In this document: positions 41,417-54,484 of the stretch, piece by piece
How positions within the stretch are numbered: position 1 is the first letter of the stretch
How the letters are laid out: each line of letters starts with the position of its first letter
Source: an uncultured Cytophagales bacterium
GTDB taxonomy: Bacteria; Bacteroidota; Bacteroidia; Cytophagales; Cyclobacteriaceae
Reading direction: 5' to 3'
NCBI GenBank assembly: GCA_963774615.1
Contig: CAVZFT010000035.1
Location: 40,595 to 104,594 of the forward strand
DNA length: 64,000 bases
Notes under the pieces: model-generated
Told to the model about the DNA's origin: nothing
What the model saw: only the letters and a program-made list of their open reading frames with translations
Database searches by the model: none
Program-made: the position numbers and the translations under genes

Positions 41417-43410
41417 ATGGCAAAAGTTTCAAAGCCAGGTGAAAGACCAAGAAAGGCTGCTCCCGTTGAGGTAGCAAAGCCTGTAGCGAAGAAGCAAAAA
41501 GAAGGTAAAATCGAGATTGACGAAGATGATCCGTTAGCAGAGATCAAATCCCTTCAGAAAGAGGAAATCCATACTGAAGCCATTCCGGTTTCAGAACTCA
41601 AAAAAGCCAAGTACGAGAAGCAGGTTCCTGGTGAATTTGACTTTGACGCGTTTGAATCAAGGGGCTTTGGCGAAGGATACTCCAAAGACAAGCGTGCTGA
41701 AATGGAGAAGATGTACTCCGTCACGGTTACTTCTGTTGATACTGGTGAAGTTGTAAAAGGAACAGTTGTTGGAATAAACGACCGCGACGTGATCCTTAAC
41801 ATTGGATTCAAGTCCGACGGTCTTGTGCCGCTGGCGGAATTCAAGGAAATGCCGAACCTGAAGATCGGTGACATAGTTGACCTGTTCATTGAAGAGCGTG
41901 AAGACTCAATGGGTCAATTGGTGTTGAGCCGCAGAAAAGCGAAACTGGTGAAGGGTTGGGAATATGTACAAACGCACTTGATAAGGATCAGGTTATCGAA
42001 GGTTTTGTAAAACGCAGAACCAAAGGTGGTCTTATCGTGGATGTCTTTGGAATCGAAGCGTTCCTTCCTGGATCACAAATCGATGTGAAGCCTATCCGCG
42101 ATTTCGATATTTATGTTAATAAGTCAATCGAAGTGAAAGTTGTGAAGATCAACTACACTAACGACAACGTAGTTGTATCGCATAAAGTCCTTATCGAGAA
42201 AGATCTCGAGCAGCAGAAAGCAGTTATCCTCACCAACCTCGAAAAAGGTCAGGTGTTGGAAGGTGTGATCAAGAACATGACCAACTTCGGTGTGTTCATC
42301 GACCTTGGTGGTGTGGACGGATTACTTCACATTACAGATATCAGCTGGGGACGTATCAACCATCCGGAAGAAGTGCTCAAGCTTGATCAGACTGTTAAAG
42401 TTGTTGTGCTTGACTTCGACGGTGACAAGAAGAGAATTTCACTGGGTATGAAGCAGCTTACTCCTCATCCTTGGGATGCGTTGGCTGCTGAGATCCAGGT
42501 TGGATCTAAAGTAAAAGGTCGGATCGTTAACGTTGCTGACTACGGCGCGTTCCTCGAATTGCAGCCAGGTGTTGAAGGATTGATCCACGTAAGCGAAATG
42601 AGCTGGTCACAGCACTTGCGCAATCCTCAGGACTTCATGAAGGTTGGTGACGAAGTTCAAGCTGTAGTGTTGACGTTGGATCGCGACGAGCGTAAGATGT
42701 CTCTTGGCATTAAGCAACTCACGAAGATCCATGGACAAGACAAGATGTTCTTACCAAGTATGCGGTGGGAACGAGACACAAAGGTATCGTTCGTAACCTT
42801 ACCAACTTCGGCTTGTTCATCGAGCTGGAAGAAGGTATCGACGGTCTCGTTCACGTATCAGACCTAAGCTGGACGAAGAAGATCAAACATCCTTCTGAGT
42901 TCGTGAAAGTTGGAGATACCATGGAAGTACAAGTGCTGGAGCTTGATGCTGCTAACCGAAGATTAGCGCTTAGCCATAAGCACATGGAAGAGAACCCTTG
43001 GGATACTTTCGAAACGATCTTCACTATAGGATCGGTCCACAAGTGTACGGTGATCAACAAGAATGACAAAGGTGCTATTCTTGAATTGCCTTACGGTATC
43101 GAAGGTTTCTGCGCCGCGAAGAACCTTGCTAAGGAAGACAACTCAAAGATCGAAGTTGGCGAATCGCTTGACTTCAAAGTTCTCGAGTTCTCGAAAGACG
43201 ACAGAAGAATTGTTCTTTCACACAAGTCTACGTGGTCTGCTGACGAAGAGAAGCCTGCAGCTCCTCCTGTGAAGAAGAAGCCAGTTCCTGCTAAGGGTAC
43301 ACGTTCAATCGATCAATCAGCAAGCTGAGAAGTCGACACTCGGTGACCTCGAAGCACTCAGTGCGTTAAAGGAAAAGATGTCTGGCGGCGGCGAGCCAAA
43401 AGCTGAATAA
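41417..43410 (+). CDS. rpsA: 30S ribosomal protein S1 (bS1); three apparent frameshifts (~41975, ~42725, ~43320)
   Basis: S1 repeats: NIGFKSDG, AFLPGSQID, FGVFIDLGGVDGLLHITDISW, EGLIHVSEMSW, DGLVHVSDLSW; tail STLGDLEAL. Confidence 0.95.
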
Positions 43411-43426
43411 GCCTTTTAATATAAAG

Positions 43427-43464
43427 GAAAGGTGACCGAGCTTTTGGTCACCTTTCTTTTTTTT
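43427..43464 (+). terminator. Intrinsic terminator after rpsA
   Basis: GAAAGGTGACC-GAGCTTTT-GGTCACCTTTC followed by a T-run. Confidence 0.85.
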
Positions 43465-43541
43465 GATAGGGTTGTAATCAACAGTGATTTTTATAGTTTT
43501 GCAAGGGAAGGTTTTAGTAGTTAAACCTTGATTGAATAAAT

Positions 43542-43612
43542 GGTCTCGTGGCCGAGTGGCTAGGCAGAGCTCTGCAAAAGCTTCTACAGCGGTTCGAATC
43601 CGCTCGAGACCT
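43542..43612 (+). tRNA. tRNA-Cys(GCA), CCA not encoded
   Basis: Acceptor GGTCTCG/CGAGACC, anticodon stem GAGCT/AGCTT with loop CTGCAAA, T-arm AGCGG-TTCGAAT-CCGCT. Confidence 0.95.
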
Positions 43613-43625
43613 CTACAAGGAAAAG

Positions 43626-43653
43626 AGTCAGTCACCTTAAGACTGACTTTTTT
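43626..43653 (+). terminator. Terminator after tRNA-Cys, repeated at ~43829 and ~54723
   Basis: AGTCAGTC-N7-GACTGACT followed by a T-run. Confidence 0.8.
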
Positions 43654-43674
43654 GTTTTTGAGAGATTATTTAAA

Positions 43675-43938
43675 TCAGCGACTGGTTCGAATCGCTCGCC
43701 GTCCGTAGCGCCTCGCGAAGGCGGCCGCTCGAGACCTCTAAAATAAATTCAGCGACTGGTTCGAATCGCTCGCCGTCCGTAGCGCTTCGCGAAGGCGGCC
43801 GCTCGAGACCTCTAATAAAATAATAAGAAGTCAGTCGCAGAAGACTGACCTTTTGTTTTTGAGAGTTTATTTAAATCAGCGACTGGTTCGAATCGTTCGG
43901 CGACGTAGCGTCTCGCGAAGTCGACCGCTCGAGACCTC
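43675..43938 (+). repeat. Three modified copies of the tRNA-Cys 3' end (R1 43675-43740, R2 43749-43814, R3 43876-43938)
   Basis: TCAGCG-ACTG-GTTCGAATC-[31-32 nt]-CGCTCGAGACCTC versus tRNA CAGCG-GTTCGAATC-CGCTCGAGACCTC; R1 and R2 differ at one base. Confidence 0.9.
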
Positions 43939-44340
43939 AGGAAGCCTTGGAATCTTAAATGATTTCAAGGCTTTTTTATTTTTTAGAAAGCATTCATATT
44001 ATTTTATGTTGTGGACATTTTGCCACGGACCATTCATGTGCCAACGATGAATTTCACTTGTTAAACTGAGGATCGCAAACCTCTGAAACGAGTGAAATGT
44101 GGTATGATTTTTTCCCTACTCCTTTGAAAAGAAGTTCATCGCATGCATATGAATTTTGCATATATGTTATTTGTTGAAGGAGATTGAAAATGACAGATTT
44201 CACCATCGTCACTATACGCCATCAAGAGATGACTGGAATGAAGCTAACACCTTGGGAGTAGTTTACAATTTTGGCAAGGCGGCTAGCTTTATGGATTTGA
44301 ACTTATACATCTGAAATGATTTTACATAAATAGAAATCAT

Positions 44341-44508
44341 ATGAATACAAGATTAAGTTTAATTTTTTTAATCGGTGTCGCGATGGGAACGGCCTTGGGA
44401 CTGTTGATCGCGCCCGAGCCCGCACGCGCTACTTTGCGAAAGGTAAAGCGGGACGCGGACCGGCTCGTTGATAAGGTTGAACAGTTAAAGGAGCAAACGC
44501 AGGCATAA
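44341..44508 (+). CDS. YtxH-domain small protein (not in the ORF track)
   Basis: MNTRLSLIFLIGVAMGTALGLLIAPEPARATLRKVKRDADRLVDKVEQLKEQTQA*, with the G..LGLLxAP pattern. Confidence 0.7.
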   Translation: MNTRLSLIFLIGVAMGTALGLLIAPEPARATLRKVKRDADRLVDKVEQLKEQTQA

Positions 44509-45833: not shown

Positions 45834-46206
45834 TCATATTCTACCTTTTTCATCGACAATAAAATCAACGAAAACGGTTCCTTCATAGCCCTTTTCGCGA
45901 GCTGCTTCAGGATATGTCAGGTTATTTTTAAGATATTGTCTCATTTCATCAAATCCACCCGTATATGAGGCATCAACATCTGCCTTGTAATACACGATTT
46001 TTCCGGAAGCATCTTTATAGGTTGGTGTTGGCTTTGCTTTCTCAGCTATCGCAAGTTTTCGTTGCGCTTCTTTTTCTGCGCTTGCTTTTGCGATTTTCGC
46101 CCGTGTGGCGGCAATCTCAACTGGCTGCTTTATCTGCTTTGGGCGCGCAGCTTTGCCCGATACCAAGAGCTGATACTAAAACACAAAGTATTATAATGTT
46201 TTTCAT
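45834..46206 (-). pseudogene. Truncated TonB C-terminal-domain lipoprotein
   Basis: Lipobox GQSC, frameshift near 46115, YLKNNLTYPEAA..GYEGTVFVDFIVDEKG, then TGA with no recognisable rest of the domain. Confidence 0.6.
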
Positions 46207-46243
46207 AAAATATGGTTTGATGAACGAATTGTAAATCGATGTA

Positions 46244-46307
46244 CAAAGATCACATAACGGCCGGTTAAAAGATTGCACTCCCCTATGTTGTTGTTACATA
46301 CATCACT
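46244..46307 (-). promoter_or_regulatory. Island motif copy B plus -7-like box
   Basis: AGTGATGTA-TGTAA-N16-TGCAAT-N19-TGATCTTTG, upstream of the tonB-like gene. Confidence 0.7.
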
Positions 46308-46430
46308 GAATGTGGCAAGGACTACCCAGACGTATACATATAAGGACTCACTTTATTTTGTTTTTGGCAAGTGATTATATAAGAATATTACCATGCGCGA
46401 TAAGCGAATCATCCTGGTCGTTGTTAAAAC

Positions 46431-46495
46431 TGTGATATATGTAAGATTCATGACCCTGGGTGTAACGAATAACGTGTTGCAGCCGCTGATCTTTG
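46431..46495 (+). promoter_or_regulatory. Island motif copy A plus -7-like box
   Basis: TGTGATATA-TGTAA-N16-TGTAAC-N20-TGATCTTTG, upstream of the small-protein cluster. Confidence 0.75.
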
Positions 46496-46555
46496 TAGCC
46501 TGTAGAATTCAAAGTACCCTGTAGAATTACAAACTCTTATCTCTGAAGACAAATC

Positions 46556-46768
46556 ATGAAAAAAGCTGGCATCATTATCCTGATTATCGGACTGGTAGTA
46601 ACTATTGTTACCGGACTGACCTTTGTGACGAGAGAGAAAGTAGTAGATATAGGGAAACTGGAGATCAATGCTGAGAAGAAGCATTCATTATCCTGGTCAC
46701 CGGTTGTTGGAGTGGTTATGATGACCATCGGTGCAGGTGTTTACCTGACAGGCACAAAGAAACTCTGA
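46556..46768 (+). CDS. Small two-TM hypothetical protein
   Basis: MKKAGIIILIIG..FVTREKVVDIGKLEI..WSPVVG. Confidence 0.7.
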   Translation: MKKAGIIILIIGLVVTIVTGLTFVTREKVVDIGKLEINAEKKHSLSWSPVVGVVMMTIGAGVYLTGTKKL

Positions 46769-46801
46769 TCGCTCTATTGTAGTACACGAAAAAAATAAGT
46801 C

Positions 46802-46990
46802 ATGAAAAATATAACAGCCTTGAAAGGAAATTGGAATGAGATCAAGGGAAAACTGAAACAAAAATTTGCCATGCTTACCGATAGCGATCCGCTGTTTTTA
46901 GAGGGCAAGCAGGACGAGCTTTTAGGCAGGCTTCAGACTAAGCTGGGTAAAACAAATGAAGAAATAAAAAAGATCATTGCTGACTTATAA
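46802..46990 (+). CDS. CsbD-family general stress protein
   Basis: [33 protein letters not shown]. Confidence 0.85.
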
Positions 46991-47163
46991 ATCAACGTCA
47001 TCAGCTACGAACCTTCAACAGGAACGAGGAATTTGACAACGACAATATCCGCAAAGACATTAACCCTGGGTATAGATTTTATAATTCGAACATAACAAAG
47101 GAACGTTGTTTGAAATTTCAGATGACGTTTCTTTTTCACTCCACAAATAAACAAACAACGTTC

Positions 47164-47319
47164 ATGGGAAATTTACTTTACGCAATTGCAGTCATCTTAC
47201 TTATTTTTTGGGCTATTGGATTCATCGGGTATAATATTGGAGGAATCATTCATATTCTATTGGTGATCGCAGTCATCGCAGTTTTATTTAAAGTTATTCA
47301 GGGAAAAAGGATTTTTTAA
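47164..47319 (+). CDS. lmo0937-family small membrane protein
   Basis: MGNLLYAIAVILLIFWAIGFIGYNIGGIIHILLVIAVIAVL. Confidence 0.8.
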   Translation: MGNLLYAIAVILLIFWAIGFIGYNIGGIIHILLVIAVIAVLFKVIQGKRIF

Positions 47320-47498
47320 ACTCCTTAACGCTATATACTTATAAGAAATAAGCAGTCAGGAATGGACTATGAGTTAATGGCGAATTTATCCTTCGGGCGA
47401 GACGCGTCCAACGTGGTACTAAAAATGCCCACACAATCAGGTTGTTGGTTATAAATGCGTTGAACTTAAAAAAAGGCCCACGCAAATCTGAACTAACC

Positions 47499-48608
47499 AT
47501 GGATACCTCTCTTAGAATACCGTTTTATGCCAAAGTTGCGCTCATATCGATCAGCACGCTTGCATTTATCTTTACGATGCATATTGGTCAGGGAATTATC
47601 ATTCCTATTATATATGCAACCATCATAGCCATTTTACTGAATCCTCTTGTAAACTTTCTGCAGCGCAGAAGCATTAACAGGATTGTTGCCATCTCAATTT
47701 CAGTGGCACTTACCATTTTTGTAGTGTTGTGTATTTTTTATGTGCTCTCTTCTCAGCTTACGATGTTCAGTGAATCATGGCCGCAGCTGAAGGAAAAATT
47801 CAATACTACAAGCGCTGAGCTTGTTCATTGGATTTCCGATAAGTTTAACATCCGGGTGTCGCGAATCAATGCCTGGACAAAAGAGACACAAAACGAGGCG
47901 ATCAGTGATTTTGCCATTGGCGATACCCTTGCTGATGTAGGCGGGATACTCGTGATCTTTATGCTGTTACCGGTTTACTTGTTCATGATCCTCTATTATA
48001 AACCTCTACTCTTGGAATTTATCCGCAGGTTGTTCAGGGACGAACATCAGGCGAAAGTGACTTCCGTGCTCACGAGCAGTAAAAGTATTATTCAAACTTA
48101 CCTGGTTGGATTGTTTTTCGAGCTGATCATTGTAGCGATTTTAAACTCTGCAGGCCTCCTGCTCCTTGGAATCGAATATGCGATCATCCTTGGTGTGATC
48201 GGGGCGATCCTTAATCTTATTCCTTACCTGGGCGGCATCATCGCCATCGCCCTACCCATGGTCATCGCCTTTGTCACGAAGGATTCGCTTACCTATCCCA
48301 TCCTGGTATTTTTTGTCTACCTCTTTATTCAGTTTGTCGATAATAACTTTATCGTCCCGAAAATCGTAGCAGCACGAGTAAAGATCAATGCTCTGATTTC
48401 GGTTGTCGCTGTGTTGATTGGAGGAGCTTTATGGGGAATCTCAGGCATGTTTCTTTCCATTCCGATTACCGCGATCCTCAAAGTTATGTTCGATCACATT
48501 GAATCATTAAAACCCTGGGGATTTCTATTGGGTGATATCGTTCCTACGACATCCAAGTTTACCTTTGTCAAGAAAGGTAAAATACCATCAGCTTCTGAAG
48601 TTAGGTAG
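47499..48608 (+). CDS. AI-2E family transporter
   Basis: Multi-TM; LNLIPYLG, IQFVDNNFIVPKI, GGALWGISGMFLSIP. Confidence 0.85.
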   Translation: MDTSLRIPFYAKVALISISTLAFIFTMHIGQGIIIPIIYATIIAILLNPLVNFLQRRSINRIVAISISVALTIFVVLCIFYVLSSQLTMFSESWPQLKEKFNTTSAELVHWISDKFNIRVSRINAWTKETQNEAISDFAIGDTLADVGGILVIFMLLPVYLFMILYYKPLLLEFIRRLFRDEHQAKVTSVLTSSKSIIQTYLVGLFFELIIVAILNSAGLLLLGIEYAIILGVIGAILNLIPYLGGIIAIALPMVIAFVTKDSLTYPILVFFVYLFIQFVDNNFIVPKIVAARVKINALISVVAVLIGGALWGISGMFLSIPITAILKVMFDHIESLKPWGFLLGDIVPTTSKFTFVKKGKIPSASEVR

Positions 48609-48632
48609 GCCGTCGTACGAGTCGAACAGTGA

Positions 48633-49125
48633 TTACAGGTGCGTCGATTTTAATTGGCGTGAGGTAATCAGTTCAGTGAGTTCAGGATAGTCCTTTATCC
48701 ATTCACTGTTCAGGCAATGTGTCTTTGAAATATGAAACAATTGATCTCGCCTTTAATTATCGAATGGATATGGGCAATACCTGTTTAATCAGTGTTAACT
48801 CTTTCTCAACCTCTGGGTAGTGGAATGGAATGAAGTTGATACCCTTTTTATAAGATAAAACTGATTTACCGGTGTTATTTAATATTGCTACAGTAATAGA
48901 GCCAGGGAGTCGAAATAAAAGTGGAGTTGAATCGAGCTGGATATTTGTTTTGCGTGAACACTCACCTGCAGGGTTTAAAAAGTCCACTTCGTCACAAACG
49001 CTGCAATCGAATCAAACGTTTCTGTGAAAAATCCCACAACGCGAACGAAAACACTTTTTGGCATAATGGCTGTTCATTGCGACCATGTTCTTCGGTTGCG
49101 ATAAAATAAACTGTCTTTCACTCAT
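48633..49125 (-). pseudogene. Possible degraded or frameshifted hypothetical gene downstream of motif C
   Basis: ATG with an A-rich leader at 49125, short protein-like fragments in different frames, no recognised family. Confidence 0.3.
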
Positions 49126-49193
49126 AATGGTTGTTTGCAATTGTTATAAAAACAGCACACTCCTGTTGAGCGGCCCTGCTTTCTTGCATGACA

Positions 49194-49257
49194 CAAGGTG
49201 ATACTATAAACCGGATATGACATTACAGCTGGGGATAAAAAAGTTACATCAATCACT
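49194..49257 (-). promoter_or_regulatory. Island motif copy C plus -7-like box
   Basis: AGTGATTGA-TGTAA-N16-TGTAAT-N19-ATCACCTTG. Confidence 0.7.
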
Positions 49258-49269
49258 GATTTACGCCAT

Positions 49270-49362
49270 TTCGGATGTCGGATGTCGGAAGGAGTTAGAT
49301 TAGGATGGATGTAGACTAATCGAATAATACGTCGCCGAAATCCGAAATCGTAAGTCCGAAAT
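49270..49362. repeat. Inverted heptamer array TCGGATG/TCGGAA ... TCCGAAA
   Basis: TTCGGATGTCGGATGTCGGAA ... CCGAAATCCGAAATCGTAAGTCCGAAAT. Confidence 0.7.
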
Positions 49363-49731
49363 TTGGATTGGCTCTATCTTGAATTTATCAGCAATAACCA
49401 GAAAGGCCATGAGACGAATAGTTTGCTGGGTCAATTATGACTACATTACTGTAAATGGACAATATTTATAAGGAGGGGACCTTCATTACGGCAAAAGCCG
49501 ATTCTGAATGCAAGTTAATCATCAATCGCTATCTAGGACGGATTTATTATTGTAAAGCCGTGAATGATCCGAATGGAAAACTATTAGCTTATTTTGAAAG
49601 AGAACTTATTGCTCCGGAGAACGCAAAATAACTCTCTTGTTGCTTTTGCCTTATGATGCTGATCACAGCCCCTTGAGACAAATGGCATTGCTGCTTCCTG
49701 CTATCTTATCCCACATTGTTACTGGACGACC

Positions 49732-49796
49732 TGTGACTTATGTAACAATTTAGGTCTGCTGCGTAACATTTCTATGGTTCTGGTTATCGATCTTCA
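49732..49796 (+). promoter_or_regulatory. Island motif copy D plus -7-like box, upstream of the AraC gene
   Basis: TGTGACTTA-TGTAA-N16-CGTAAC-N20-CGATCTTCA. Confidence 0.7.
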
Positions 49797-49821
49797 CGGT
49801 TAGGCTTTAAAGATTCCGAAT

Positions 49822-50409
49822 TTGAAATTATTTATCAAATACATGGTTAGCAACCGCTGCAAGCTTGCAGTGAAAGAAGAGCTAAAAAAGCTCGGGCTGC
49901 ATTTCATTGTTGTGGGTCTTGGGGAAGTTGAAATTATGGAAGATTTAACATTAGAGCAGCAGCAGCTATTACAGGCCGGTCTCGTTTCATCAGGACTGGA
50001 ACTCATGGACGATAAACGGGCGGTACTGATAGAAAAGATCAACAACGTAATTACGGAAATGATCCATCATTCGGAAGAGTTACCAAGAGTGAACTATTCT
50101 GATTACATCAGCGAAAAACTAAATTACGATTACACGTATCTCTCGAATCTATTCTCGGAAGTAAAAGGCATTACCATTCAGCAATTCATTATCATTCATA
50201 AGATCGAAAAGGTAAAAGAGCTGCTCTTTTACAATGAGCTCAATCTTACAGAGATATCCTATAAAATGCATTACAGCAGTGTTGCTCATTTATCCAATCA
50301 ATTCAAGAAAGTAACGGGACTTACGCCTTCTGCTTACAAACAACTGAAGGATAAAAAGAGAAATACATTGGAAGAAATCGGAAGATCAAATGGTGTCCAT
50401 CAAAATTAA
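49822..50409 (+). CDS. AraC-family transcriptional regulator (Bacteroidota type with a short HMA-like N-terminus)
   Basis: YDYTYLSNLFSEVKGITI, LTEISYKMHYSSVAHLSNQFKKVTGLTPS; N-terminal MVSNRC. Confidence 0.9.
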   Translation: MKLFIKYMVSNRCKLAVKEELKKLGLHFIVVGLGEVEIMEDLTLEQQQLLQAGLVSSGLELMDDKRAVLIEKINNVITEMIHHSEELPRVNYSDYISEKLNYDYTYLSNLFSEVKGITIQQFIIIHKIEKVKELLFYNELNLTEISYKMHYSSVAHLSNQFKKVTGLTPSAYKQLKDKKRNTLEEIGRSNGVHQN

Positions 50410-52432
50410 AACACATACTGTGCAACCCACTACTTTGGAAACAACGAAAACAAAGGAATCAGGATATGCCAGGAGTTTGATTGAAGCAAGCCTGGATCCA
50501 CTGGTGACCATTAGCGCCAAAGGTAAAATCATGGATATGAATGAGGCGTTAGCCAATATTACGGGCATAACGCGTGAGAAACTTACCGGCACGGATTTTC
50601 TCGATTATTTCACGGAACCTCAAAAGGCGCGTGCTGTATATCAGGAGGTTTTTGCTAAGGGCTCTGTCGCTGATTCTCCGCTCACGCTGCGTCATCAGAA
50701 CGGAACGCTTACCGATGTGCTGTTCAATGGCTCTATTTATAAGGATGACAGCGGAAATGTTTTGGGTGTGGTGATCGTGGCCAGGGATGTTACGGAACAA
50801 AAACGAATCGCTACCGCGCTTCAGGAAGCGATCGTGTTTGCTGAGCTGGCAACAAACATTGCAGAAGAGGCTAAATTGAAAGCAGATGGTGCGCGGAAAA
50901 TTGCCGAGGATGCTGTGAAAGCGAAGCAGCAATTTTTGTCAAACATGAGCCATGAGATCCGCACTCCGATGAACGCAATCATTGGGTTCACAAAAGTTGT
51001 TTTGAAAACTGAACTTTCCCTCAAGCAAAAAGAATATCTAAACGCTATTAAAACGAGTGGTGACGCGCTGATTGTTCTCATTAACGATATTCTCGATCTG
51101 GCAAAAGTAGATGCGGGGAAAATGACATTTGAGCAAACACCATTTAAAATGGCGTCCTCCATTGCTGCCATGCTCCACTTATTCGAGCTGAAGATCCAGG
51201 AGAAAAATCTGAAACTGATCAAACAATACGATGAAAAAATTCCGGAGGTATTGCTGGGCGATCCGGTTCGTTTACACCAGATCATCCTCAACCTTGTAAG
51301 CAATGCAGTTAAGTTCACCAAAGAAGGAACAATTACCGTGGCTGTGACCTTACTTGAGGAAGACGAAACAAAAGTTTTGGTAGAGTTTGTTGTTACCGAT
51401 ACCGGGATAGGAATAGGAGAGGACCGGATGGATACCATCTTTGAAAACTTCCAGCAGGCTACAAGCGACACCTCGAGATTATTCGGTGGTACTGGCCTTG
51501 GTCTTGCCATCGTTAAACAGCTGGTAGAGGCGCAGGGAGGAAGTATTCATGTGAAGAGCCGAATTGAAGAAGGTTCCGATTTCTGCTTTTCATTGAGCTT
51601 TAAAAAAACTAATGAGGCTGCAGAATCAGAACCCGTAAGCGTTCTTTCAGACACACCGTTGAGAAGTGTGAAAGTTCTTGTGGTTGAAGATATTGCACTC
51701 AATCAACTTCTGATGCGCACGCTGCTGGATGATTTTGGATTTGAATGCGACATTGCCGCCAATGGGAAACTAGCGATCGAAAAACTTCAGCATAAAGTTT
51801 ACGATATTATCTTAATGGACCTGCAGATGCCGGAGCTCAATGGGTTTGAAGCCACGGAATACATTCGTAAAACGCTAAAACTTAGCATACCGATCATTGC
51901 CCTTACGGCAGACGTAACTACGGCCGACCTGGCCAAATGTAAATCGGTAGGTATGGACGATTATATCTCAAAGCCTGTTGATGAACGATTGCTGCAAAGC
52001 AAAATTATTTTATTTCTTGCGCGCGTCAACGCCATGAAGGGAAAGGAATCTCCCAATATGGTTGGAAATGTAAAGTATGTAGATCTCACATACCTGGGTA
52101 AACGCACCAAGTCAGACCCGGGCTTAATGAGAGAAATGATCTCCCTTTACCTGGGGCAAACAACCTCACTGATCAAGGAGATGCTTGCCAGCGCGAACAC
52201 CAAAGATTGGAAGACATTACAATCTGTTGCCCATAAAATGATCCCTTCTTTTTCGATTGTTGGCATTGATAAACAATATGAAGATATGGCGAAGGGGCTA
52301 CAGGAATCTGCGCGCACAGGCGAAAATCAGGAAGAGATCAGGGGCTTTGTTCTGGACCTTGAAAATGTTTTGACCCAAGCCTGCGAAGAACTTGAAACTG
52401 AATTGAGCCTGATCCAAAACACCGTATTATGA
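50390..52432 (+). CDS. Cytoplasmic hybrid histidine kinase PAS-HisKA-HATPase-REC-Hpt
   Basis: PAS ARSLIEASLDPL, H-box MSHEIRTPM, NAVKFT, DTGIG, GTGLGL, REC ILMDLQMP, Hpt AHKMIPSF; no TM segment. Confidence 0.92.
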   Translation: MVSIKIKTHTVQPTTLETTKTKESGYARSLIEASLDPLVTISAKGKIMDMNEALANITGITREKLTGTDFLDYFTEPQKARAVYQEVFAKGSVADSPLTLRHQNGTLTDVLFNGSIYKDDSGNVLGVVIVARDVTEQKRIATALQEAIVFAELATNIAEEAKLKADGARKIAEDAVKAKQQFLSNMSHEIRTPMNAIIGFTKVVLKTELSLKQKEYLNAIKTSGDALIVLINDILDLAKVDAGKMTFEQTPFKMASSIAAMLHLFELKIQEKNLKLIKQYDEKIPEVLLGDPVRLHQIILNLVSNAVKFTKEGTITVAVTLLEEDETKVLVEFVVTDTGIGIGEDRMDTIFENFQQATSDTSRLFGGTGLGLAIVKQLVEAQGGSIHVKSRIEEGSDFCFSLSFKKTNEAAESEPVSVLSDTPLRSVKVLVVEDIALNQLLMRTLLDDFGFECDIAANGKLAIEKLQHKVYDIILMDLQMPELNGFEATEYIRKTLKLSIPIIALTADVTTADLAKCKSVGMDDYISKPVDERLLQSKIILFLARVNAMKGKESPNMVGNVKYVDLTYLGKRTKSDPGLMREMISLYLGQTTSLIKEMLASANTKDWKTLQSVAHKMIPSFSIVGIDKQYEDMAKGLQESARTGENQEEIRGFVLDLENVLTQACEELETELSLIQNTVL

Positions 52433-52863
52433 AACCCGAAAATAAAATAAAACTTTTCCTTGTAGACGATGATGTCGTGTTTTTGAAATCACTGGAAATG
52501 GAATTCAATGAGCGTGGAAATTTTGATATTGAAACCTATGTATCAGGTGAACTTTGCATAGACAACCTTTCGAATAGGCCGGATCTCATTATCCTGGATT
52601 ATCTTCTTGACGGTACCAATAAGGACGCCATGCATGGAATTGCAACACTGGATAAGATTAAAGCGCATGATGCTGACATACCGGTCGTCATGTTATCTTC
52701 CCAGGATAAGATAGAGGTTGCCGTAAATTGTATGCATCACAAAGCGTTTGACTATGTAGTGAAAAGTGAAACTGCGTTCTTGCGTCTACAAAAAATCATC
52801 ACCTCGGTTTTTCACCTGCGCAAAATTGAAAAAGAGCTTGTTTGGTATATGGAACGGATGTGA
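52429..52863 (+). CDS. Single-domain response regulator
   Basis: LVDDD, IILDYLLD, MLSSQ, YVVK. Confidence 0.88.
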   Translation: MKPENKIKLFLVDDDVVFLKSLEMEFNERGNFDIETYVSGELCIDNLSNRPDLIILDYLLDGTNKDAMHGIATLDKIKAHDADIPVVMLSSQDKIEVAVNCMHHKAFDYVVKSETAFLRLQKIITSVFHLRKIEKELVWYMERM

Positions 52864-53143
52864 AATAGGGTCCGAATTCCTGGTTGGGTTTTGGTGTATT
52901 GACCAGAAGATCCGGTTTCATCCAAAGTTTAAAGATCTGAGCTTCTAAGTTCGAGTTTCTAATGTTCCCCTTTGTAATGGCTGAATCTTAGCCAGAACAG
53001 GATCTGTTACCATGGCTGGCAATTCGATTCGTAAGCAATAGTAGTTGGCTTTTTAAATTCACTGCGTTGTCCGCTAAAACGGCAACGCATTTTTTGTTTT
53101 GACACGATTCAAATAGGCAACTCCGTGCCTTCCATGTACAATC

Positions 53144-53179
53144 TGTTAATAATGTAATCTTTCACTAACCATGTGTAAT
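53144..53179 (+). promoter_or_regulatory. Island motif copy E
   Basis: TGTTAATAA-TGTAA-N16-TGTAAT, then CTCACTTTA 19 nt later. Confidence 0.6.
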
Positions 53180-53245
53180 GCATGTAGATCGTTATTGTCT
53201 CACTTTATCAGATATTTTTGTTTGATATCAAATTGAAACGGCACC

Positions 53246-53281
53246 TGTAAGATATGTAATACTCTCCGGCCGGCCTGTAAA
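53246..53281 (+). promoter_or_regulatory. Island motif copy F
   Basis: TGTAAGATA-TGTAA-N16-TGTAAA. Confidence 0.5.
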
Positions 53282-53619
53282 TCCTTCCACCGAATAGTTG
53301 CGACATTTATATCATCAAACAGCAACGAAAAATGACGCTCCTCCAACAATTTCCTGACGTATCGATGCAAATGAGACGGCTCAATCAGAAAAACACGCAA
53401 AAGAAAATAGGAAGCGCAAAAAGAGCATATATGACAATGGCAATGGCAAAGAGCTCGATCTGTATTACGATAATGAATTCAGGAAATGGCATAACAAACT
53501 AGCGTTAATTATTGTGTTTATCATTACCTGTCTTTTAGCTGCACTAGTCGGGATTTCAAGACTTTTCTAACGGTTAAATACTTTAAATCAAAATACTTTC
53601 AACATTAAACTGATACAAT

Positions 53620-54033: not shown

Positions 54034-54484
54034 ATGAAAAAAACGGGGCCGATAATGATCATAGAGGATGACATGGATGATCAGGAGTTTTTGGAAGAAA
54101 CATTCTCAATTCTTGATTACCCAAATCCCGTTATTTTCTTTTCCAATGGGAACGAAGCGCTGGAGTATCTACTTGAAACAAAGACTCCTCCGGTTCTCAT
54201 TATATCGGACATCAACATGCCGGAAATCAGCGGGATTGAAGTAAGGGAAAGAATTAACAGCAACAAGAAATTACAAAAGCTCCAAATACCTTATGTATTT
54301 TTCACAACAGCGCAAAAGGCATCGGTTGTAAGTGAGTGTTCATTGTCTGACTTTGGCTTCTTCACAAAACCGAATACAATGGCTTGAGATTCAAAATACG
54401 ATTAAAACCATTATGGAGTATTGGCTTGAGCGTTATACGCCAAGTTTAGTTATCAAACAAGCCGACTGTCAAGCAGCTGCATAG
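54034..54484 (+). CDS. Single-domain response regulator; frameshift near 54385
   Basis: IIEDDMDD, LIISDINMP, FFTT, FTKP; the shifted frame continues EIQNTIKTIMEYW. Confidence 0.85.

Follow-up and report, generated by a model that had tools for sequence, protein, structure and literature searches.

A composite promoter conserved in Bacteroidota and its link to an AraC-type regulator, a putative phosphorelay, and stress-related genes

Known AraC-type systems and the locus compared

AraC at araI1-araI2 of the E. coli pBAD promoter, XylS at Pm, and RhaS/RhaR employ a double helix-turn-helix (HTH) domain, and the class II sites of araI1-I2, XylS, and RhaS are direct repeats with a 21-bp period, in which the proximal half-site overlaps the −35 region. 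A similar arrangement is found in a stretch of 64,000 nucleotides from contig CAVZFT010000035.1 of an uncultured Cytophagales bacterium (hereafter the window, meaning the whole stretch), where a composite promoter element of ~70 bp occurs six times around the gene of a 188-aa AraC-type regulator (araC), a hybrid histidine kinase gene, and the gene of a protein consisting of a receiver (REC) domain without an output domain. The regulator has a double-HTH domain as well, and, as in pBAD, Pm, and the RhaS promoters, two direct-repeat half-sites with a 21-bp period lie at approximately −72 to −35, the proximal one overlapping the −35/−33 region and being weaker than the distal one; the likeness extends to class II activation and autoregulation, which are predicted here. 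Unlike pBAD and Pm, however, the host promoter is of the Bacteroidota −33/−7 type, and a half-site consists of two similar pentamers, TGTGA and TGTAA, 9 bp apart. The regulator also differs from AraC in its N-terminal part, which is an alpha/beta-plus-helix module of ~75 aa with no Pfam match rather than a cupin sugar-binding dimerisation domain, and in its input, which is apparently a phosphorelay rather than a small ligand.

Three other groups of described systems resemble the locus in part. The DNA-binding domains of YesN, AraT, and the Bacteroides hybrid two-component systems (HTCS) are the closest solved ones by sequence, and in all of these cases the AraC-type domain is genetically tied to a histidine kinase; here, however, the REC and AraC domains are separate proteins, the kinase is a soluble PAS hybrid with its own REC domain and HPt, and the targets are stress and envelope genes, unlike the polysaccharide utilisation loci of HTCS. 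In the Bacteroides HTCS, the REC domain gates DNA binding by the AraC-type domain, holding it inactive (PMC11253607). Like MarA, SoxS, and Rob, the protein would be a small, autoregulated AraC-family activator of a dispersed stress regulon with asymmetric class I/II sites, but MarA and SoxS recognise one 20-bp box as monomers and are regulated through their abundance, whereas a three-box site of ~40 bp at a fixed position and a linked kinase are found here. The gene content (CsbD, YtxH, Dps/ferritin, lmo0937-type, Usp, catalase, OmpA-like), the predicted positive autoregulation, and the input from PAS or other sensory kinases are shared with SigB of Bacillus/Listeria, RpoS, and PhyR-NepR-EcfG of Alphaproteobacteria. 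Unlike these systems, the switch would be a transcription factor acting on housekeeping-type promoters instead of an alternative sigma factor with partner switching. We read the six sites as the putative activator-dependent promoters of one conserved regulon, and give the whole reading, an autoregulated AraC-type class II activator at the head of a phosphorelay-linked stress regulon, a probability of about 0.7.

A composite promoter with rigid spacing across Bacteroidota

All six sites, which an earlier note on this DNA had described from the sequence alone, were confirmed in the window sequence at the coordinates and on the strands given there, and they lie together within 46.2-53.3 kb (Table 1). 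Four exact matches to TGTAA-N16-TGTAA are present in the 64 kb against 0.20 expected, and the longer pattern GTGAT-N3-TGTAA-N16-TGTAA with up to two mismatches has six matches, which are the six sites only, against 0.14 expected; six matches were reached in 0 of 100 shuffles. Scored with a position weight matrix (PWM) trained on other genomes only, the sites reach 15.6 to 32.4 bits, and the next-best match in the window has 12.0 bits. The absence of the motif from the first 43 kb, which the earlier note had put forward without an exhaustive scan, was borne out by the two-mismatch scan and the PWM over the 64 kb. The −7-like boxes reported at 19-20 nt past the third box of sites A to E are present, and site F, for which none had been listed, also has one (GACATTTA at +47).

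The conservation of the element was examined in 80 other loci comprising 1.2 Mb, which were obtained from one scan of species-representative genomes with the AraC protein as the query (70-85% identity) and are unbiased for the motif. They belong to Cytophagales, Chitinophagales, Bacteroidales (Paludibacter, Prolixibacteraceae), Flavobacteriales, and others. In this sample, 205 occurrences of the loose pattern TGTAA-N16-YGYAA stand against a chance estimate of ~10, and many of them are situated ~100 nt upstream of araC. Alignment of the sites exposed elements that were not part of the seed, namely AAA at −14 to −12, TGTGA at −9 to −5, and a TTTG box near +52, counted from the first TGTAA. With a 43-nt PWM built from these sites, 297 sites pass the threshold of 14 bits and 282 also reach 20 bits, while shuffled DNA yields no site; the score distribution is near-bimodal, in agreement with the earlier expectation of a motif above the genome background. 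In the refined matrix, the three boxes read T-G-T-G-A, T-[G>A]-T-A-A, and T-[G>A]-T-A-A, and most box positions are 84-100% conserved.

The geometry proposed at the outset, that is, a 21-bp direct repeat with its proximal box on the −33 position and a −7 box at a fixed distance, is retained in 94% of the sites. An nAnnTTTG box is present in 284 of 303 sites, in 275 of these at exactly +47 or +48 from the first TGTAA, so that the full module can be written AAA-N2-TGTGA-N4-TGTAA-N16-TGTAA-N21/22-CAnCTTTG with rigid spacing. Conserved downstream open reading frames (ORFs) have start codons that peak at +90 to +120 from the first TGTAA and lie 45-60 nt past the start of the −7-like box. The −7 box of flavobacterial sigma-A promoters, TAnnTTTG, spans −12 to −5 (PMC9723704). 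When the last box of the module is read as such a −7 element, the transcription start site (TSS) is predicted ~60 nt past the first TGTAA, and the three pentamers are placed at about −69/−65, −60/−56, and −39/−35. Across ~300 sites, the half-site is thus bipartite, with an offset of 9 bp from TGTGA to TGTAA and of 21 bp from there to the third TGTAA, which falls at about −39 to −35. No −33 TTTG element was found in the aligned sites, and the conserved TGTAAC box occupies that position. The first base of the −7-like box is C in 66% and T in 14% of about 300 sites (loci L001-L165), giving CAyCTTTG against the consensus TAnnTTTG, and this C may be what makes the promoters activator-dependent.

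A second sample was collected with the motif itself, by scanning metagenome contigs for TGTGA-N3-ATGTAAC-N15-TGTAAC, a pattern that does not include the −7 box. The 144 matches lie in 120 loci, and the −7 box is present in 135 of the 143 matches with enough downstream sequence; the same loci contain 92 further PWM sites. Collectively, it is hardly open to doubt that the motif is a real, conserved regulon signal.

The candidate regulator, its operon, and the predicted regulon

The 188-aa protein matches Pfam HTH_18 (2.7e-16) and HTH_AraC (1.8e-13) with a C-terminal double-HTH AraC/XylS domain (PF12833/PF00165). A Response_reg match in Pfam is absent from it, REC being found only in the adjoining kinase and the 144-aa protein. 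It has more than 8000 homologues, and the 120 listed are 79-98% identical to it. PDB profile matches place two-component output domains (YesN 3lsg, AraT 6swi, and Bacteroides HTCS 12aw) closest among solved structures, besides XylR domains, and a Foldseek search with the AlphaFold2 (AF2) model gave TM scores of 0.73-0.79 to AraT, AdpA, YesN, and MarA. The model (mean pLDDT confidence 78) consists of an N-terminal helix-strand-strand-helix, a long helix at residues 57-75, and the DNA-binding domain at 85-172, with pLDDT of 52-77 for the N-terminal module and the long helix. Residues 1-85 have no Pfam or NCBIfam match and are not of the cupin type, and this N-terminal domain family comprises ~1068 representative clusters, which almost always belong to proteins no longer than ~190 aa. 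The two recognition helices, YTYLSNLFSEVK and VAHLSNQFKKVT, share the core [Y/H]-L-S-N-x-F (YLSNLF and HLSNQF) and are almost invariant in the 80 orthologues, which is consistent with the invariant motif.

As anticipated for araC genes of the MVSNRC type, a high-scoring site lies upstream of 50 of the 80 orthologues; its position relative to the ATG is −97 to −118 in 49 cases, chiefly −100 to −106, and −203 in the remaining one (L054). Site D, 102 nt from the araC ATG by its box, has the position seen in those 49 loci; it is the predicted autoregulatory site of the araC operon, and its position speaks for the ATG at 49843 rather than the TTG at 49822 as the araC start. Site density per 10 kb is 10.9 directly upstream of araC, ~5 directly downstream of the operon, and 1.4-2 at a distance of 8-10 kb in the 80 loci. 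When every ORF of 90 aa or more in these loci was clustered, conservation was limited to araC, the kinase, and the REC protein, and no sigma factor, anti-sigma factor, or other DNA-binding protein was conserved near the sites. It is this combination of co-localisation, autoregulatory position, and lack of another conserved DNA-binding gene that points to AraC as the binder, and, judged from the sequences, AraC is probably the activator of the motif promoters.

The kinase gene overlaps araC by 20 nt, which places it in the same operon, and the order araC, hybrid kinase, REC-only gene is kept in at least 63 of the 80 loci. NCBIfam has no specific model for the regulator, the kinase, or the REC protein. 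Alignments of the kinase run through the HPt regions of ArcB, TorS, and EvgS, with a candidate HPt histidine in SVAHKM. The REC-only protein, in which the REC domain is followed by a short C-terminal helix, is the probable end point of the phosphorelay, and the simplest model, by analogy with the fused systems, is that it acts in trans on AraC. Orthologous kinases (L012 7162-9483 and several metagenome loci) vary in the number of N-terminal PAS units and carry long arrays of the repeat ANKELVFQNEEKEKRAAEL, and some of them are themselves downstream of a motif site. In one locus (L081, 17243-19909), a set resembling RsbR/RsbS/RsbT (RsbRD_N+STAS, STAS, and HATPase_c_2) together with a PAS kinase lies 7 kb downstream of the araC operon, which suggests a stressosome-like input nearby.

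The genes downstream of the sites belong to recurrent families. In the sample collected with AraC, araC itself (55 sites), secreted proteins with Big_5 and Ice_binding domains (45), and CsbD (24) lead, accompanied by small secreted and His-rich proteins, lmo0937-like peptides, outer membrane beta-barrels, REC proteins, cupin, GH130, OmpA/TSP3, AI-2E, YtxH, and Dps. In the sample collected with the motif, the families are CsbD (21), lmo0937-like (13), Ice_binding (13), cupin (10), OmpA with a glycine zipper (10), and MlaE-like (8). Single genes in the latter sample, judged by sequence without Pfam, resemble those of a universal stress protein, Mn-catalase, ferritin, a cold-shock protein, dodecin, and sigma-70; this last gene, which lies directly downstream of the site in one metagenome locus (within L086-L205), encodes a sigma-70-family protein of 287 aa, the size of the Bacteroidota primary sigma factor.

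Target families were compared by the share of genes in the AraC-derived sample with a site 60-260 nt upstream. The conservation expected upstream of csbD was found in 19 of 22 genes near araC orthologues, followed by Dps (3 of 5), cupin (6 of 15), lmo0937-like genes (5 of 14 with an own site, and 8 of 16 in a second homologue set), YtxH (2 of 11), and AI-2E (3 of 18). The core targets are therefore CsbD and araC, whereas YtxH, for which enrichment had been proposed as a check, and AI-2E are occasional targets at best. The earlier proposal that AraC drives the csbD, lmo0937, and AI-2E genes is supported for csbD; the lmo0937 and AI-2E genes of the window have no site of their own. No convincing terminator was found ahead of these two genes, and read-through from site A, the only way in which the motif could act on them here, may or may not extend to them.

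Several of the small target genes in the window show irregularities. Site B, divergent from site A, has a degenerate third box (TGCAAT) and the −7-like box GATCTTTG. The lipoprotein gene downstream of it has its signal peptide, MKNIIILCVLVSALGIGQSC, in one frame and the remainder in another, with a truncated TonB_C domain, and is either a pseudogene or the product of an assembly error. Compared with the window, one base at 49071-49072, inside the small ORF downstream of site C, is missing from every RNA contig of soil relatives; dropping this base yields no long ORF and no recognisable family. Homologues of the 56-aa ORF downstream of sites E and F end in a membrane helix. In the region 53332-53570, a stretch resembling a helix comes after the ORF in another frame, so the ORF is probably truncated by a frameshift.

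Table 1. Positions of the sites, genes, and other features in the window (composite promoters with PWM scores and predicted TSSs)
Feature	Position	Strand	Basis and remarks
tRNA-Cys	43542-43613		
YtxH	44341-44508		Pfam
TonB_C-like lipoprotein gene	45834..46206 (to 46278 with signal peptide)	-	downstream of site B; split between two frames
Site B composite promoter	46243..46312	-	first TGTAA 46298; 15.6 bits; predicted TSS ~46238; putative target: TonB_C-like lipoprotein gene (homologous gene in L046 likewise motif-driven)
Site A composite promoter	46426..46495	+	sequence; 31.9 bits; predicted TSS ~46500; putative targets: 70-aa membrane protein and csbD
Site A elements	AAA; TGTGA 46431-35; TGTAA 46440-44; TGTAAC 46461-66; -7-like GATCTTTG 46488-95	+	
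70-aa protein with two transmembrane helices	46556..46768	+	first gene downstream of site A; family motif-driven elsewhere (4-locus cluster)
csbD	46802..46990	+	Pfam CsbD; most consistent target family after araC
lmo0937/DUF5670 membrane protein	47164..47319	+	no own site here
AI-2E family transporter	47499..48608	+	Pfam; no own site here; weak regulon membership
42-aa ORF	49012..49140	-	downstream of site C; start 108 nt from first TGTAA; transcribed in soil relatives
Site C composite promoter	49193..49262	-	first TGTAA 49248; 32.4 bits; predicted TSS ~49188; putative target: small ORF(s), no assigned function
Site D composite promoter	49727..49796	+	first TGTAA 49741; third box CGTAAC; 28.2 bits; predicted TSS ~49801
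araC-type regulator, 188 aa	49843..50409	+	Pfam HTH_18/HTH_AraC; candidate motif binder
Hybrid histidine kinase	50390..52432	+	Pfam; PAS, HisKA, HATPase_c, REC, C-terminal HPt-like region
REC-only regulator, 144 aa	52429..52863	+	Pfam; REC and short C-terminal helix; no DNA-binding domain
Site E composite promoter	53139..53208	+	first TGTAA 53153; tandem with F; 27.8 bits; putative target with F: ORF at 53332
Site F composite promoter	53241..53310	+	first TGTAA 53255; -7-like GACATTTA 53302-09; 17.6 bits; predicted TSS ~53315, directly upstream of the ORF starting 53332
56-aa ORF (MTLLQQFPDVS...)	53332..53502	+	downstream of sites E and F; related to motif-driven family of ~75-110 aa
Second REC-only protein	54034-54387		Pfam

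Transcript data were available as assembled soil metatranscriptome contigs from relatives of 88-95% similarity. No public run matched this genome exactly, and those of soil and rhizosphere DNA have at most 26% of the sampled words in common with it. In two true RNA-seq runs (X24 and X25), the A/B intergenic region is flanked by contigs on either side, and contigs also cover the region downstream of C, where soil RNA-seq contigs extend over 48903-49146. The X24 and X25 contigs end 17-42 nt inside the predicted TSSs, and the motif-bearing promoters are uncovered. Directly upstream of araC, a 58-aa ORF at 49455-49631 (MDNIYKEGTF...) is kept in at least seven other loci and is motif-driven in two; RNA contigs of relatives run from this ORF towards araC, and a second, upstream araC promoter is therefore possible. 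Between site C and the 58-aa ORF, imperfect inverted repeats (ATTTCGGATGTCGGATGTCGGA and TCCGAAATCGTAAGTCCGAAAT) lie 51 nt apart at 49268-49362. The predicted 5′ untranslated region of site A contains a 19-20-nt tandem duplication at 46497-46535 (CCTGTAGAATTCAAAGTA and CCTGTAGAATTACAAACT), of which the contig of a soil relative has a single copy.

The surroundings of the module had been described as a tRNA-Cys island. GC content from 44 kb onwards is slightly lower (0.40-0.43 vs 0.45-0.47), and the module, being a core system of phylum-wide occurrence, is not treated here as part of a mobile island. Downstream of the tRNA-Cys, at 43600-43960, there are four copies of the tRNA 3′ end (CCGCTCGAGACCTC) and two tandem 74-nt units of 95% identity with the T-arm-like GGTTCGAATC, none of which is called as a tRNA by ARAGORN; they may represent tRNA copies in decay or repeated scars of an attachment site. 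At 43398-43471, a match to CsrC below threshold (25 bits vs a gathering score of 61) falls on a 26-nt inverted repeat after the ORF at 42765-43328 and most likely represents the terminator of this ORF.

Proposed mechanism and competing explanations

The mechanism that we propose combines these elements. The 188-aa AraC/XylS protein would bind as two monomers to the direct repeat, 21 bp apart, the upstream monomer placing its two HTH motifs on TGTGA and TGTAA; the two alike recognition helices would fit the two similar pentamers, which have the same orientation and are 9 bp apart. The downstream monomer would sit on the third TGTAA in place of the −33 element and recruit RNA polymerase as a class II activator. 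In this manner, the regulator is predicted to activate its own operon (araC, the PAS hybrid kinase with HPt, and the REC-only gene) and a regulon of stress and envelope genes encoding CsbD, lmo0937-like proteins, Dps/ferritin, OmpA, beta-barrels, cupin, ice-binding-like secreted proteins, and MlaE-like permeases. As to the signal path, we infer that the phosphorelay ends on the REC-only protein, which would control AraC in trans and thus form a 'split' response regulator of the YesN/HTCS type.

Several observations weigh against this mechanism. The assignment of AraC is one of guilt by association, and the link between motif and araC is regional but not obligatory: of the 120 loci collected with the motif, 23 contain an araC orthologue, as do 12 of the 38 among them that measure at least 8 kb, so that about two-thirds of the latter have no araC on the contig, and 30 of the 80 araC orthologues have no upstream site. 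A Ser/Ala variant in recognition helix 1 is accompanied by no clear matching change in the motif, and the upstream box is not conserved in the second half-site across ~300 aligned sites, which bears on the binding of two monomers. Furthermore, the C found in 66% of sites as the first −7 base could point to another holoenzyme, and contigs of three other runs (X26, X28, and X29) enter or cross the promoters, one starting at GCTGATCTTTG; these could be due to DNA carry-over or read-through.

Part of this evidence would suit a different factor encoded elsewhere, such as a LytTR- or OmpR-type response regulator, with the araC-kinase operon as a mere member of the regulon. LytTR regulators, too, typically use direct repeats of 21-bp period ahead of the promoter, the LytTR and OmpR types using periods of 21 or 10-11 bp, and many sites on contigs without araC as well as the ~30 of 80 araC genes without a site could be explained in this way. 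However, no other DNA-binding gene, including any of the LytTR or OmpR type, is conserved near the sites in the 80 loci, the conserved REC protein has no output domain, and site density is highest at the araC operon. Moreover, AraC is extremely conserved, as is the motif, and similar pentamers spaced by 9 bp suit a double-HTH protein with two similar recognition helices, which together make a different binder unlikely. A quite different view takes the two TGTAAC boxes as the −35 and −10 elements of an extracytoplasmic function (ECF)-type alternative sigma factor and places the CAnCTTTG box inside the transcript. The box does resemble an ECF −35 element (cf. TGAAAC/TGTAAC-N16-17-CGTA), site D reads TGTAAC-N15-GCGTAAC, and a metatranscriptome contig of run X26 starts upstream of the −7-like box. 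Against this, the third box begins with T in 96% of sites instead of the C of an ECF CGT, the spacer of 15 nt is one below the usual ECF spacer (AAC-N16/17-CGT), TGTGA and AAA are left unexplained, and no sigma or anti-sigma gene is conserved nearby. A TTTG box fixed at +47/48, as seen in 94% of sites, is a hallmark of Bacteroidota sigma-A promoters. The X24 and X25 contigs stop well before the ECF-type TSS positions, with the promoters of the A/B intergenic region uncovered, and X26 and X28 also cover a non-transcribed promoter, suggesting DNA carry-over. An ECF promoter is therefore improbable.

Similarly improbable is the idea that AraC binds but mainly represses or anti-activates, occluding the −33 position as long as no signal removes it. 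The proximal box does overlap the place expected for sigma region 4, and the AraC domains of HTCS are held inactive by REC domains (PMC11253607); yet the promoters have no −33 TTTG of their own and a non-consensus first −7 base, both typical of activator-dependent promoters, and their geometry matches the activator sites araI1-I2, XylS, and RhaS. That the repeats arose by chance, as a dispersed repeat or mobile-element end, or as a cis-regulatory RNA has next to no probability, the short length of each box being all that speaks for it. Chance is rejected by the six matches found against 0.14 expected and by the 297 real sites against none in shuffled DNA, and a repeat family by spacers that are not conserved. 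A structured RNA or riboswitch is likewise rejected: Rfam gave no match except tRNA-Cys and the sub-threshold CsrC, and the sites fold no better than shuffles (z scores of −0.75 to +1.4). Sites of the CRP/FNR type were also considered and rejected, since the boxes are direct repeats and not palindromic.

The mechanism class, an AraC-type class II activator, is already known. What appears to be new is the domain architecture, the link to a phosphorelay via a stand-alone receiver, the promoter grammar in a phylum with −33/−7 promoters, and the conserved regulon resembling a general stress response. No description of the regulator, the motif, or a Bacteroidota general stress regulon was found in full-text searches of the literature, and the motif is not mentioned in the TSS atlas of F. 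psychrophilum. Bacteroidota are dominant in soil, water, and the gut, and few genetic tools are available for them; to our knowledge, no defined general stress response is known in this phylum. In a bolder and tentative extension, which we consider somewhat doubtful, the module could be the master switch of a phylum-wide Bacteroidota general stress response, a counterpart of SigB, RpoS, and EcfG that works through a transcription factor; the phosphorylated stand-alone receiver would dock on the N-terminal domain of AraC and thereby license DNA binding and the recruitment of sigma-A to promoters without a −33 element. The analysis provides a precise candidate circuit, consisting of a ~70-bp module, a candidate regulator with 70-98% identity across at least five orders, a linked phosphorelay, and a list of regulon members. 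It could help to mark hundreds of hypothetical small proteins as stress-induced, to predict which promoters of uncultured Bacteroidota respond to stress, and to supply inducible promoter parts for these bacteria, and it may point to a novel mode of linking a phosphorelay with an AraC-type activator.

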